The translations under genes and the position numbers were made by a program. Below the pieces are notes generated by a model. The model made no database searches. It was not told the origin of the DNA and saw only the letters and a list, made by a program, of their open reading frames with translations. 64,000 nt of DNA from Eledone cirrhosa. Lineage: Eukaryota. Positions 11,355 through 56,466 of this stretch are shown here, in pieces. The stretch's first letter is position 1, and each line of letters starts with the position of its first letter. Location of the stretch: the NCBI GenBank assembly GCA_964016885.1, contig OZ024757.1, forward strand, positions 17,670,001 through 17,734,000, read 5' to 3'.

Positions 11355-11420
11355 TATTTTGTCTGAGGAAGGCATAGCATATTGTTAATATGATATCCCT
11401 GAAATATATATAATGAAATA
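11355..11420 (+). ncRNA. Type I hammerhead ribozyme motif (family A)
   Basis: TATTTTGT CTGAGGA [AGGCATAGCATATT GTT AATATGATATCCCT] GAAA TATATA TA^ ATGAAATA; stems I and II pair, with G-U pairs and two mismatches. Confidence 0.8.
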
Positions 11421-12198
11421 AATATGGTTTTATAAATATAGTTTCCATTTATTTAATATTGTTAATATTGTAAATATACTCCAAATATTTGTCGAGTGCT
11501 TTTATATCAGTTATAAATATTTACTAGTTGTAACCCAACAATTTAAATATAACTTTCCATATATATGTGTATATATATATATGTGTATATATATATATGT
11601 ATATATATATATATGTATATATATATATATATGTATATATATATATATATGTATATATATATATATGTATATATATATATATATATGTATATATATATAT
11701 ATGTATGTATATATATATTCAAATCCGGTCGTGGTTAGCTTTGCCTTTCATCTTTACAGGGGCCGATAAAATAAAGTAGCATTAATGCACTGAGGTTGAC
11801 TTAATCGACTTTCCTCTCCCCTACCATTGTTGACGTTGTACCTAAATCAACAACCATTATTTGCTGCAATGTATTAGTTTATTGCTGGGGTTTTACTGGT
11901 CCAGAGCCTGGAACTAGTTGTTGGAACGGTGAGAGTTCAGACATCAGAGTCCCAACTCTTTATAATATATATATATATATACATATATATATATATATAT
12001 ATATATATACGGCAAACAACCTAACCATTTGACAATGCACCCTACACCTGGCTCTTTACTTCCATTTAATTATTATATATATATATATATTATAGATATT
12101 ATATATATATATATATATATATATATATATATATATATAACAGCGATGAATTAGTTTTGCGAGGTTTTTGATATGAAATTGTGTGTCAAAACAAATAT

Positions 12199-12522
12199 TG
12201 TTATACACGCAAACGCATGCGCAGAGAAGACAAAAAAAAAAAAAAATAAATAAATAAACAGACTAAATAAAGATGGCGTAGCACCACTGACGATGTTGCA
12301 GATGTGCAACGAAAGAACTTTATTAGACTATATATATGTGTTTGTGTCTACATTGTATCTGTATTTTTGACCGTTGGTCAGTCAATGGTAACATTGAGGA
12401 CCGAATAAATTAAATTAACCGATACAAAAGACACAGAAGCGAAAACCAAGCAAACAGTGAGTGTGTTCTGTTATTATTCTGGCAATATTATTACACAAAT
12501 ATGACCCTCCCTAAGTATAACA
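12199..12522. mobile_element. Solo-LTR-like or MITE-like element with TGTTATAC...GTATAACA termini
   Basis: 8-bp terminal inverted repeats (TG..CA), ATAT on both flanks, internal TATA and AATAAA. End fragments recur at 12822-12877, ~32959-33000 and 42633-42800. Confidence 0.6.
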
Positions 12523-12592
12523 ATATATATATATATATATATATATATATATTGTTTTTTAAAATCCAAATTCAATAAACAGACCAGGATTT

Positions 12593-12652
12593 TTTCATTC
12601 TGAGGATTGAAAGCAAAATCTTTTGCTTTTAAGAAACCACTGGTAAATGGAA
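12593..12652 (+). ncRNA. Type I hammerhead ribozyme motif, GUA cleavage triplet
   Basis: TTTCATT CTGAGGA [TTGAAAGCAAA ATCT TTTGCTTTTAA] GAAA CC ACT GG TA^ AATGGAA; all three stems pair and the core is intact. Confidence 0.85.
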
Positions 12653-13706
12653 TAATTGCCTTATGTTGTTTATTACATAACTATTAAGCTCTGTTACCTA
12701 CATAGAGCACTCTTTTTTCCTGGACTTTTCCGACGGAATTACTTCATTTATATATATATATAATTCGTTTTTGAATTTGTTTTACGAGATTTCTTATCTG
12801 AAAATGGGTGTTGAAACATATTGTTATACTTTGGTGTCTGTGTTTTTATTGGCAACATGACCCTCCCAAAGTATAACTATATATTTTATGGCATTTTTTA
12901 AAACATGATGGAGCTCATCTCCGCTCCAGTTTTGAACACAGCAGATTTCCTCCAGAGAAGAACAGAGAGTGAGAGAATAGAAGTGAGAAAGAGACTTAGA
13001 AGAAGAATCGACACCAGTACATGACTGGTGATTTTTTTTATCGACCTCAAAAATATGAAAGGCAAAGTTGACCTTAGTGGGATTTGAGAGAGCAGAGATC
13101 CAGGACAAAGAGCACAGAACATGCTACGAGGGGCGGCTGAGAGGTTCATGGGTTGACTTAGATACTCTCATGGAATGACCAAATGAGGCTTATTTTTCAA
13201 AAAGGTCCCCCAAAAGAAACAATACAGTTATTAATAAGAAGAGTTGAAATTAATGCATGCAAGATTTCACAACTTTATCATCACCCCTTCATAATCGGCC
13301 TATGAACTTTTCAGCTGATGTTCTAACGACCCTGCCAATTTACTAATTAAGCTAATAACCGTATTAATTTTACTCTAAATTTAAAACCAGCTTAGAATAA
13401 AGTGTTGGTCAATCAAATGTTTAATCTTTGAGATTTAATGAGTTTCATTTTGTTTAGTTAGTTCTTCCATTGAAAATATGATGATAAGTTCATTATGGTA
13501 ATTTTTGATAATAGTGTCGTGAAGAGTGTGGCTTAGTGGTTTGAGTGCTCAGCTCACAATAGTGAGGTATATATATATATATATATATATATATATATAT
13601 ATATATAGAGAGAGAGAGAGAGAGAGAGAGAGAAAGTTGAGAGAGCGAGCGTAATAATAATAAATGTGAAGACTAAAGTCTGTTATTTTAATATAATATA
13701 TATATT

Positions 13707-13876
13707 TTGGCACAAGGCCAGCAATTACCCAGTGTATTACTGGTACTTTATTATATCGACCCTATAAGGATGAAAGGCAAAGTTAACCTCGGCGGGATTT
13801 GAACTCAGACCATAAGGGGCCGTAACTCTTTTCTGCAAAGCATGGCGTCCGACCCTCTACCGATACTGCCAATCCA
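13707..13876 (-). mobile_element. tRNA-derived SINE family; copies ~30593-30703 (+), ~39690-39800 (+), ~42874-43057 (+), ~46326-46472 (-), ~46505-46645 (-), ~53527-53705 (-), diverged ~11720-11858 (+)
   Basis: A-box-like TGGCAGTATCGGTAG, B-box GAGTTCAAATCC, body GAGGTTAACTTTGCCTTTCATCCTT...GGTCGATAAAATAAAGTACCAG. Confidence 0.85.
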
Positions 13877-53999: not shown

Positions 54000-54198
54000 A
54001 GAGTTGACATTGCACTCAGTGCTCCTTTGGGAGCCCCTACATGGACACACTAGAAGAGGAAGACCAAGGTTAACGTATGTTGATGCCCTAAGGACAGACA
54101 CTGGTCTGTTGGAGATGCAGGACATGGCAGCGATAATGAGGGACAGAGACCGCTGGAGAGAACGCGTCCATGGATCTCGGGAATTTTACCCGCCTTAG
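54000..54198 (+). mobile_element. RTE-like LINE 3' fragment
   Basis: LLWEPLHGHTRRGRPRLTYVDAL...MRDRDRWR. Confidence 0.8.
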
Positions 54199-55363
54199 AG
54201 ATATATGTACATATACATATATGTGCATATATATACATACATATAAATACATATGCACAAATAAATATATATATGCATACATATGCATAAATAAATATAT
54301 CCATACATACAAGTATATATAGAGAGAAATGGGTTCCTGATAATTTCTCCTGAATGAAACAGTTCTAGTCCTGTAGAAGCTATTTCTATATTAAATATTT
54401 ATACTCTGCTATGTATTGAGTACCTTACTTACTGTGGTTACCCCCGATTGAACCTGGGATAAACTTGTATATATATATATACATATATATATATATATAT
54501 ATATTTGAAAAAAAGAGGAAAATAATGACTTCACTTGTAGTTCTAAATAATTTGATTTAATTTTATATAATATTATGAGTTGGTAGATCTAGTAAGTACT
54601 TTGTTAACTTCAGTGGGGAGATTTTTAAAGATTCCTGGTTAACTTTCTTGGAGAACTTTCTCGCATTTGTCAGTGGCGGTGGCAATTGTCAAACTGACAC
54701 ACACACACACACACACATATATATGTATATATACATATATATATTTCGATTTTGAAGCGCGAGTGTATTAGAATTTGTAGAATAATGGAAAGAAATCAAT
54801 GCAAGGAAAGCTGTTAAAACAGCAAAACACCATCAATTTCTATCAAATGATAGAAATCAGAAGTGTGGTGGCTCATAGAAGTGATAGGAAGAAAGGAGAA
54901 AGGAAGAAAATTAAGAGATCACATTTAATAAACTCACCACTTTTAGCCCACCTGTGGTTTCGACGATCTAACTAAAAGTACCAAGTAAAATAGACGGCTC
55001 GTACAACAGAGAAATAAATAACTCTGTTGGTATGATGTTTGTGTGAGGAACGAACAGATTAGATAGATAGACAGACAAGTCAGAGAGAGAGAGAGAGAGA
55101 GAGAGAAAGGGGGAGAGAGACAGAGAGAAAGAGGGGGAGATAGATAGATGGAGAGAGGCATCATGAGATATGCAGTAGAAGACATCTCAGGGAGATTCAG
55201 CAAACGCAGTGTGTTCATCCGATAATGTTTTCACGAGATGTCAGTTGATCGGACACAGCTGCAATGATAATCGTCTAAACTAACGGAGGGCCGACATTTC
55301 CCCCCCCCCCCTCCCCTCCCCAGTTTTCTCTTTAATCTGTTGTTGTTACTTCGTTATTTTCAG

Positions 55364-55474
55364 ATAACTGTGATGACCATCGGATATGGTGATAAGGTGC
55401 CGCAGACGTGGCTTGGAAAATTAGTAGCGTCCTGCTTTGCTGTGTTTGCAATCTCATTCTTTGCTTTACCCGCA
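55364..55474 (+). CDS. KCNQ1: KCNQ1 exon 7 (selectivity filter, S6), 111 nt; later exons lie beyond the window
   Basis: [48 protein letters not shown]. Confidence 0.97.
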
Positions 55475-56199
55475 GTAAGTTTCTTCTTCTTCTTCTTCTT
55501 CTTCTTCTTCTTCTTCTTCTCTCTCTCTTTATATACACATATATGTATACAAGTGAAAGAAGATATATACATATATATGTGTATATATATATATACACAT
55601 ATATATATATATATATTTCTTGTTCATCCATTTCGCATTTTATATACCACACGCAATACTTCAAGAAAGCTACAGCTTCCTCATATATTCCCCTCCCCTT
55701 GGTTACTGCTACATACATATACGACTGCCTCTTGTTACCCCCTCTCTATCGGTATGTTTTCTTTTTCTTCTCTTTATTTTCTTTCTCTTCGCTATCATCT
55801 CTGTTTTATCTTTTCCTTCCTTAATAACTTCCTGAAGTTATTAACGTGCTGTGGATAGATGTATTGTCTTTAATGCATCGAAACATCTGAGATCCGCAGC
55901 AGACAACTGAAGAGGGGATTTGTCTTATGTTTGTGTTTCCTTTACATTTCTAAACACACTACTCTACACACACACACACACACATCATTGTGTATATGTG
56001 TGTGTACATAAATCTATAGATACCTGTGTGTCTGCACGCATACATACACACACCCATATATATATATGTAGAAGTTCTATTTAAATTGTTGGGATACAAC
56101 AAGCAAATACTTTTATAACTGATATAAAGCACTCAACAAATTATTGGAGTAAAAATACGATATATTAACAAATGGAAACTATATTTATAAAACCATATT

Positions 56200-56264
56200 T
56201 ATTTCATTATACATATTTCAAGGACACCAAGTTAAATTATGGTGTGCTTTCATCAGATAAAATA
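56200..56264 (-). ncRNA. Type I hammerhead ribozyme motif (family A), left arm of fold-back 56159-56507
   Basis: Reverse strand: TATTTTAT CTGATGA [AAGCACACCA...TGGTGTCCTT] GAAA TATGTA TA^ ATGAAATA. Confidence 0.83.
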
Positions 56265-56401
56265 TACTATAGATCAGTTTTATAAATAAATATTGACATA
56301 CCCTTAAAGAATGCGACCATTTCTATCCGGGAGCTTCCAACAGATATGGTCGCTTTCTTTATGGGTATGTCAATATTTATTTATAAAACTGATCTATATT
56401 A

Positions 56402-56466
56402 TATTTTATCTGATGAAAGTACACCATAATTTAACTTGGTGTCCTTGAAATATGTATAATGAAATA
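56402..56466 (+). ncRNA. Type I hammerhead ribozyme motif (family A), sense to KCNQ1, in intron 7
   Basis: TATTTTAT CTGATGA [AAGTACACCA TAATTTAACT TGGTGTCCTT] GAAA TATGTA TA^ ATGAAATA. Confidence 0.83.

Follow-up and report, generated by a model that had tools for sequence, protein, structure and literature searches.

A candidate twin RNA hairpin at the ends of hammerhead-bearing, Hydra-clade Penelope-like elements in Eledone cirrhosa

Introduction

Penelope-like elements (PLEs) of the Hydra clade, which includes Hydra-1_Obim, are described in the compared passages of Craig 2021 (PMC8557442) as having RW(K/R) and DKT motifs, a CxCX5C linker, CxxC and CxH motifs, a C-terminal GIY-YIG endonuclease, a canonical hammerhead ribozyme (HHR), (TA)n targets, inverted 5′ copies and a tail at one end. 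Elements alike in these features were found in a 64,000-nucleotide (nt) stretch of the Eledone cirrhosa genome (NCBI GenBank assembly GCA_964016885.1, contig OZ024757.1, positions 17,670,001 to 17,734,000 of the forward strand) and elsewhere in that genome. The whole stretch is called the window, and positions in it are counted from its first letter. Downstream of the ribozymes, a bulged hairpin was found in two copies, next to which copies of the pseudo-long terminal repeats (pLTRs) end. This twin hairpin is not described in those passages, which give tails of 30-40 nt and units of less than 3 kb, versus tails of 67-99 nt and family G repeats of 3.53 kb here. At least five autonomous Hydra-type families, two with intact open reading frames (ORFs), are present in E. 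cirrhosa.

HHRs of metazoan PLEs (Cervera and de la Pena 2014, PMC4209133) are, in the parts of that paper used here, likewise type I ribozymes with a long stem II and a palindromic stem III, and are mostly single motifs from truncated elements or opposite-strand pairs 100-700 bp apart; the U3-A8 core variant of family G is also among them. Most motifs here, unlike those, are without the G10.1-C11.1 pair. Poseidon PAc of Anolis (Frangieh 2024, PMC11167929) belongs to another clade. Its protein is reported to cut and extend both strands and to start at two internal sites that lie downstream of the HHR and bound the tail; RNA 3′ of the start sites is required, a dimer is predicted and HHR cleavage is dispensable. 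The two internal start sites of the reverse transcriptase (RT), the AT-rich targets and the uncleaved RNA template resemble what is seen here, whereas the ORF begins inside the HHR in PAc and after hairpin 2 here. The consulted parts of that paper define no binding motif, and the letters taken from its figure are without an RCUC/GAGY hairpin. Metazoan non-LTR retrozymes (Cervera and de la Pena 2020, PMC7229834; Li et al. 2026, bioRxiv 10.64898/2026.07.22.740005) are described there as non-coding type I HHR units derived from PLE pLTRs and 150-450 nt long. Families C and F and a 556-nt array (locus L315) are like them in being non-coding, but family C units are 1,262 nt long and family F was never seen with two consecutive HHRs; families A, B, D and E differ in being the ends of coding elements.

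The choice of RNA by the Penelope RT, the one-sided tail and the inverted ends are stated to be open questions in the consulted parts of Craig 2021 and Frangieh 2024. HHRs in such elements are already published, including the octopus Hydra element with a hammerhead in File S2 of Craig 2021; an earlier sequence-only reading of the window, which had called its ribozyme population unannotated, is right in this for the E. cirrhosa genome only. The new part is the downstream twin hairpin. Literature searches found no description of it, although most subscription papers lay outside these searches, so that novelty in print is unproven.

Twin hairpin downstream of the ribozymes

Families A to F comprise the HHRs of the window as grouped by self-BLAST (coordinates are given below), and family G was recognized in addition. 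A shared pattern was found downstream of the ribozymes, consisting of RCUC, an inner stem-loop that varies in length from 6 to about 65 nt, a 2-nt bulge with U first (UH), GAGY and RCU, and two copies of this bulged hairpin lie between ribozyme and start codon. Both copies were first noticed in families C and E, each directly 3′ of a cluster of element ends. For hairpin 2 it was predicted that RCUC would be found within 14-30 nt of the long end in the rare copies that read through this end; controls with a reversed pattern gave 0 matches. The predicted hairpin was found in four families, namely A (11 matches that share a single 4-nt spacer, compared with 1,566 copies having the 29-mer of end 2), B (239 matches), D (7 true of 10) and G (460 matches, including some double counts).

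The pattern fits all 12 hairpin copies in six families. Hairpins 1 and 2 are spaced 67-99 nt apart, hairpin 2 is 24-62 nt upstream of the start codon, short AT-rich tracts precede both, and the letters that flank the hairpin are nearly invariant. Covariation was counted in 67 rows without a demand for pairing and was seen for both variable pairs. The outer pair was A-T in 35 rows, G-C in 7, G-T in 6 and A-C in 0, and the closing pair was T-A in 27, C-G in 19, C-A in 3 and T-G in 0. In the first 59 sampled stretches of the genome (sample described below), the hairpin descriptor gave 38 matches, some of them overlapping, versus 0-5 for decoys, and an intact core pattern was present within 260 nt upstream of just 5 of the 38. 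Support is good for the twin hairpin as a conserved structure linked to element ends, whereas its function is putative. A function of hairpin 1 as splice acceptor was considered and dropped, as families C, D and E are without AG. An isolated descriptor match at 38737-38675 on the minus strand of the window, without a nearby HHR, may be due to chance.

Element ends and inverted pairs

Ends were scored in an unbiased set of 78 copies from 99 sampled stretches, the window and its two neighbors. Thirty-eight copies ended at most 20 nt before hairpin 1 (end 1), 33 ended at most 14 nt before hairpin 2 (end 2), 6 ended elsewhere and 1 read through, giving 71 of 78 at one hairpin or the other. This set contained 16 inverted pairs, of which 14 had one arm of each end kind, none was symmetric and 2 had an unclassified arm. 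Among loci derived from searches, which favor long arms, 61 of the 64 classifiable pairs (69 in all) had one end of each kind.

The 5′ ends cluster by family and lie upstream of the cleavage site, with 1 of 53 unbiased copies starting within 7 nt of it, which means that templates were mostly uncleaved. The usual 5′ end of family G is inside stem II. Copies span the cleavage site, and the insertions sit in (TA)n. In two runs of unspecified kind, loose (TA)n ends were present at the two end sites and depth fell at end 2; the runs may be from the same individual and were not counted as support.

Coding and non-coding families

Genomic searches returned many copies per family, with 40 candidates scored per search. 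Families A, B, D and E, which hold 10 of the 12 HHRs of the window, are pLTR pieces, either 5′-truncated or inverted, of autonomous Hydra-clade PLEs. They are not separate non-autonomous elements, because the same pLTRs join RT/GIY-YIG ORFs elsewhere in the genome. The assignment of the motifs to Penelope-type elements in the sequence-only reading was correct, and its further proposal of non-autonomous elements fits families C and F while failing for these ten motifs. The order in full elements is HHR, hairpin 1, hairpin 2, start codon, RT/GIY-YIG ORF, 3′ untranslated region (UTR) and HHR. A family A copy (L031) consists of an inverted pLTR, RT/endonuclease, a 1.1-kb UTR and an HHR, and ORF pieces of at least 90 amino acids (aa) were present in 9 of 11 read-through loci of this family. 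The same layout was seen in family B (L194, L197), where the ORF was entered in 12 of 12 fetched read-through loci, and 7 of 10 family D matches were true read-throughs into the ORF.

Family E is young, with 99-100% identity in the 40 pLTR copies that were scored; of 150 ORF starts scored, at least 20 were in open frames of 711-718 aa, and one locus (L252) has an HHR, a 710-aa ORF and a second HHR. Its protein resembles Hydra-1_Obim, a comparison made, as for all published sequences here, by eye. Family G combines a U3-A8 core and a long stem III with an intact ORF of 717 aa in head-to-tail 3.53-kb tandems (L299, G000:C1:437199500-437208000; L300, C1:91478000-91487500), and its short copies mostly start inside stem II and are without the catalytic 5′ half. 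A single ORF with RT and C-terminal GIY-YIG between HHR-bearing pLTRs was found in E and G, and in broken copies of A and B. RW(K/R/I/T) and DKT (replacing DKG) were read in all five families A, B, D, E and G; the CxCX5C linker, CxxC and CxH around conserved E and N residues, with no CCHH, were read in A, B, E and G. Among 107 aligned relatives, CxCX5C, CxxC and CxH were present in 96, 103 and 106, respectively. Insertion into (TA)n, inverted 5′ copies and a tail at one end were all observed in the Hydra-type families. An alignment-based model of the family G protein had a predicted local distance difference test (pLDDT) score of 91.6 (single-sequence model, 32.5), and its top fold matches were telomerase RTs. 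Pfam searches of the Hydra-type ORFs gave nothing significant, locus searches with single proteins in viral and metagenome contigs gave no match, and none of the listed entries was an RNA holder of family E.

An additional RT/GIY-YIG family, RT2/EN2 (L031:170-2361; L198; L203), is repeatedly followed at its 3′ end by insertions of other families, and no HHR is assigned to it. It adjoins some family B and D copies but was rejected as their partner, as different families follow it in different loci. The sequence-only reading had named two places in the window as remnants of the mobilizing Penelope-like RTs. The one at 3300-4858 was rejected as mobilizer, as it belongs to a different clade (CX4CxxC linker) and matches the family E ORF with just E=1e-4; broken RT/GIY-YIG sequence with a Neptune/Nematis-type CX4CxxC linker spans 3601..4858 (+) and has no link to the 12 motifs, and Pfam detects GIY-YIG at 3866-4858. 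The other, placed at about 31000, is of Hydra type, being a GIY-YIG endonuclease remnant at 31001..31375 (+) with 35% identity to the family E endonuclease (E=1e-13).

Of the window families, C and F alone are non-coding units. Family C is a 1,262-nt unit, found as a three-copy tandem (L207) together with an inverted copy; each of the three tandem units is longer than the 150-450 nt of retrozymes. Family F is a unit of about 420 nt in partial tandems. Three PLE proteins gave no tblastn match to the C and F units, none of 20 family F loci had two HHRs on one strand, and no autonomous partner of family F was found in the genomic loci examined. A tandem array of 556-nt units at L315 (G000:C3:255000001-255010000), nine of them with an intact HHR and without the twin hairpin, is likely a true retrozyme array of another lineage.

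Hairpins in other organisms

A homologue search yielded 245 proteins at E ≤ 1e-60, of which 30 were aligned; a search with this alignment retrieved 78 metagenome loci. Forty-five loci that included the ORF start were kept (40 clusters) and 33 were dropped. A hairpin was found on the sense strand at most 260 nt upstream of the ORF in 36 of the 45, with two copies in 21, compared with 2 matches on the antisense strand, 1 match in 81,932 nt of ORF and a mean of 0.05 of 44 after shuffling. The spacing was 55-75 nt, and the closing pair was paired in 53 of 53 cases (34 loci). At least 50 nt past the 3′ pLTR were available in 12 loci, of which 6 end 2-4 nt and 1 ends 13 nt before a hairpin. Among published consensus sequences, Hydra-2_Amil, Hydra-1_Ajap (two copies, from 2 nt into the sequence) and Hydra-2_Ajap match the hairpin by eye, and Hydra-1_Amil stops short.

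Proposed mechanism and alternatives

The reading that we favor, and regard as moderately probable, is that copies of Hydra-clade pLTRs end 5′ of either of two hairpins that are likely RNA docking sites fixing the start of the RT. Transcription would start inside the pLTR, and the endonuclease would nick (TA)n on both strands. The RT, likely a dimer with one subunit per hairpin, would prime one complementary DNA (cDNA) from each strand, and the two cDNAs would reach the RNA 5′ end and be joined head to head, producing a long arm and a short arm with a tail length equal to the hairpin spacing (67-99 nt here). Loss of one arm from such short products would give the solo pLTRs. The HHR would probably be a passenger in short copies, and would cleave for the most part when transcripts are tandem, either as a dimer or helped by protein. 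Family C, which retains both hairpins, would be a deletion derivative that for this reason is mobilized in trans. A wider form of this reading, which we propose tentatively and put at somewhat less than an even chance, would posit a duplicated, uncopied RNA handle 3′ of the template throughout the clade and a dimeric, telomerase-like RT, each subunit of which binds one handle, so that the two strands of a single cut give rise to two cDNAs. This would yield the tail, the inverted pLTRs and about 10^5 HHR-bearing solo ends, and any RNA 5′ of the two handles would then be writable into (TA)n.

Several observations weigh against docking at the two hairpins. Neither family F nor the 556-nt array has the twin hairpin, the rows used for covariation are from related families and not independent, and the end windows (20 nt for hairpin 1 and 14 nt for hairpin 2) were chosen after the ends had been seen, with AT-rich microhomology to the target blurring the ends by several bases. 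Of 46 unbiased solos, 41 stop at one of the two ends and have no partner arm, for which the model offers arm loss as its sole explanation. Nine of 45 metagenome loci are without a hairpin, 5 of 12 informative 3′ pLTRs end elsewhere, the Hydra-1_Obim consensus has no clear hairpin match and Caligus copies (Hydra-1_Crog) deviate from it (both by eye). Because the figure letters of Poseidon PAc show no such motif, the hairpin may not generalize beyond the Hydra clade, and its sequence may be clade-specific.

The hairpins might instead set RT starts that are used by independent enzymes or in independent events, the asymmetry of the pairs resulting from later second-strand synthesis, template switching or trimming by the endonuclease. 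End-mapping and covariation data fit this equally well, solos of both end types are common, and the tail is ascribed in Craig 2021, in the parts consulted, to endonuclease-mediated resolution. Up to half of the pairs would then be expected to be symmetric, whereas 0 of 14 and 3 of 64 were, and later trimming would have to halt at hairpin 1 every time; we consider this version unlikely.

Reading of the motif as DNA by the GIY-YIG endonuclease, for homing or trimming at its own pLTR, would make the ends cut sites instead of RT starts. The D. virilis Penelope endonuclease needs tail sequence to cleave, according to earlier work cited in the consulted part of PMC11167929, and near-invariant flanking letters would suit a DNA target. 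The compensatory pairs and the variable length of the inner stem-loop point to a folded single strand, however, and 99% of the family A copies extending to end 2 are without hairpin 2, which is therefore rarely in inserted DNA. Recognition at the DNA level is improbable by these data.

Spread of independent non-autonomous retrozymes through HHR cleavage and circular RNA, as the sequence-only reading had it, finds a basis in the non-coding tandem of family C, the non-coding units of family F and the 556-nt HHR array elsewhere, and re-copying in trans is conceivable for solo pLTRs in which hairpin 1 is retained. As the origin of families A, B, D and E it is contradicted by pLTRs that run into RT/endonuclease ORFs; copies are not permuted at the cleavage site, and two HHRs on one strand were seen in none of the 20 family F loci. 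We rate it as quite improbable.

Least credible is a role of the hairpins in translation or splicing, with ends coinciding merely since neighboring AT-rich tracts anneal to (TA)n targets, for although hairpin 2 is close to the start codon, short AT-rich tracts precede both hairpins and splice-donor-like sequences occur upstream in families A and F, many other AT tracts of the pLTR are unused as ends, non-coding family C retains both hairpins and the one-of-each rule in pairs is left unexplained.

If docking at the two hairpins is correct, it would explain the Penelope tail and the inverted ends. Penelope-like RTs are the closest relatives of telomerase RT, and the twin hairpin is a mutable, clade-wide candidate of 25-35 nt for their choice of RNA. 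Families E and G provide young, intact proteins for testing its role. The motif gives curators exact boundaries of Hydra elements and helps to recognize non-autonomous derivatives, family C being an example, and a handle outside the copied region, if real, would be useful for RT-based insertion tools.

Hammerhead ribozymes in the window and the genome

HHRs were searched with a descriptor consisting of stem I of at least 5 bp, CUGANGA, a folding stem II, GAAA, stem III and UH, under a strict and a relaxed stem III rule. In the window it gave exactly 12 type I HHRs with no extras (11 under the strict rule, 12 under the relaxed rule). At least 12 complete type I motifs had been listed in the sequence-only reading; the same 12 were recovered, and the positions listed there are the low end of each motif. 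Two hundred dinucleotide shuffles per setting, the comparison proposed with that reading, gave means of 0.0-0.025 and a maximum of 2, and a chance origin was rejected by the shuffles and decoy cores. Rfam, also proposed there, listed no hammerhead model among the best 150 of 505 window matches or in two focused scans; the matches listed were microsatellite-driven and sub-threshold only. A descriptor for long stem III found no further credible motif in the window. The U3-A8 descriptor was noisy (2 matches; decoys 10, 0 and 1) and was excluded from the density figure.

The core starts are at 11363+, 12600+, 14686-, 20419-, 21466+, 23032+, 33678+, 37489-, 45548-, 45628+, 56256- and 56410+, and all 12 have the CUGANGA/GAAA/UH core and three helices and are open at stem I. 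Self-BLAST placed 11363, 14686, 20419, 33678, 56256 and 56410, with a broken copy at 14787, in family A and 45548/45628 in family B; C (21466), D (37489), E (12600) and F (23032) are singletons. Six families were correctly counted in the sequence-only reading, but they are not unrelated, as it had held: A and B share stem I and have RT pieces that are 52-60% identical, and A-E have the downstream twin hairpin in common. Because 45548/45628 and 56256/56410 are inverted pairs, the 12 motifs represent 10 insertions; a third inverted pair is formed by 14686 and the broken 13th copy at 14787+.

Stem III, described earlier as mostly palindromic, is an exact palindrome in 8 of 12 motifs. In the copy at 23032 it is ATTAGT, with just 1 bp of stem III, versus ACTAGT in 15 of 18 readable genomic copies of family F. 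By computation, the stem III palindromes do not fold alone and pair as duplexes at -2.2 to -10.5 kcal/mol (-0.2 for the window variant of family F), which fits the use of dimers that had been suggested. Monomer folding z-scores were modest (0.27 to -2.38), and three family A copies were computed to pair alternatively as monomers.

Density was estimated from 99 systematically spaced 10-kb stretches (989,800 nt) of the 3.0-Gb genome. These contained 42 descriptor motifs, 9 of them in one tandem array, versus 0-1 for six decoy cores and 0 for ten shuffles. This corresponds to 42 per Mb (bootstrap 23-68) and about 1.3 × 10^5 genome-wide (0.7-2.0 × 10^5), bearing out the dense population that had been supposed from the window. 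The window is 4-6 times denser than the sample (resampling P = 0.018), and its two 10-kb neighbors have zero motifs. Published counts, obtained with a different descriptor, are about 9,000 in X. tropicalis and 4,000 in coelacanth according to the consulted part of PMC4209133, and up to 120,000 retrozyme copies are given for axolotl in that of PMC7229834. HHRs are an expected feature of such elements and notable solely by their number (about 10^5, many intronic). Twenty of the 42 sampled motifs fall outside families A-F. Further HHR families with a 6-10-nt palindromic stem III were seen at L136, L153, L195, L251, L253, L306, L309, L148 and L152, and no downstream hairpin match was found at these nine loci.

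Elements of the window

Solo pLTRs reaching end 2 were an A-like copy at 11335..11558 (+; HHR 11355-11420, predicted cleavage after 11412, hairpin 1 11478-11500, end 2 in (TA)n), a family E copy at 12555..12748 (+; HHR 12593-12652, hairpin 1 12688-12711), which is 99-100% identical to many genomic copies, and family A copies at 20233..20497 (-; HHR 20367-20427, hairpin 1 20316-20291) and 33600..33882 (+; HHR 33670-33731, hairpin 1 33797-33820). A family D solo pLTR at 37384..37558 (-; HHR 37441-37494) has end 1 and so carries no hairpin. A 5′-truncated copy of the non-coding family C tandem unit lies at 20583..21658 (+; HHR 21461-21534, hairpin 1 21589-21627, end 2), and 1.4 copies of the non-coding family F unit lie at 22740..23338 (+; HHR 23026-23068, weakened stem III, no twin hairpin).

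The family A inverted pair within 14498..14853 consists of a long arm on the minus strand (HHR 14631-14694, hairpin 1 14581-14559, end 2) and a short arm on the plus strand with a broken HHR at 14787 (stem III/I lost), which stops before hairpin 1. In a KCNQ1-like intron, the family B pair within 45455..45811 has a short arm on the minus strand (HHR 45486-45556, end 1) and a long arm on the plus strand (HHR 45620-45690, hairpin 1 45733-45760, end 2), and the A-like pair within 56068..56507, also in a KCNQ1-like intron, has a long arm on the minus strand (HHR 56200-56264, hairpin 1 56150-56128, end 2) and a short arm on the plus strand (HHR 56402-56466, end 1). The diverged A-like copies at 11363, 14686 and 56256/56410 are 76-85% identical to the family A reference, and their link to an ORF is by homology. 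A family G inverted pair at 46081..46271, overlooked before, has only the 3′ half of the U3-A8 variant HHR, with end 1 in the short arm and end 2 in the long arm; a second, at 60323..60481, also has the 3′ half of the HHR, with hairpin 1 at 60393-60367 on the minus strand.

AAG/GTATGT and AAG/GTAAGT sequences resembling splice donors precede the core by about 60 nt in most copies of family A and are found at 22985-22993 in family F, which also has the octamer ATGCAAAT; we presume that these may reflect the Penelope pLTR intron and promoter.

Other features of the window

Exons of a KCNQ1-like potassium channel are at 38616, 43849, 52727-52800, 53806-53930 and 55376 (+), and also at L302:80. 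The introns house the family B, the A-like and the two family G inverted pairs. In pre-mRNA, the B and A-like pairs would make hairpins of 131 and 175 bp that are 94-95% complementary, and these are possible editing substrates. Inside a KCNQ intron, 47295-52326 is occupied by a 36-nt tandem repeat (59 copies, 98% match) followed by a 373-nt repeat (8 copies). A frameshifted RT with a PHD-like finger (Pfam RVT_1, PHD) at 57285-59155 (+) looks to us like a long interspersed element (LINE) of RTE type. A transposase-like helix-turn-helix remnant is at 17176-17556 (+), a Pif1 helicase remnant is at 18887-19321 (+), and a (TA)n tract of 3.4 kb extends from 6917 to 10281.

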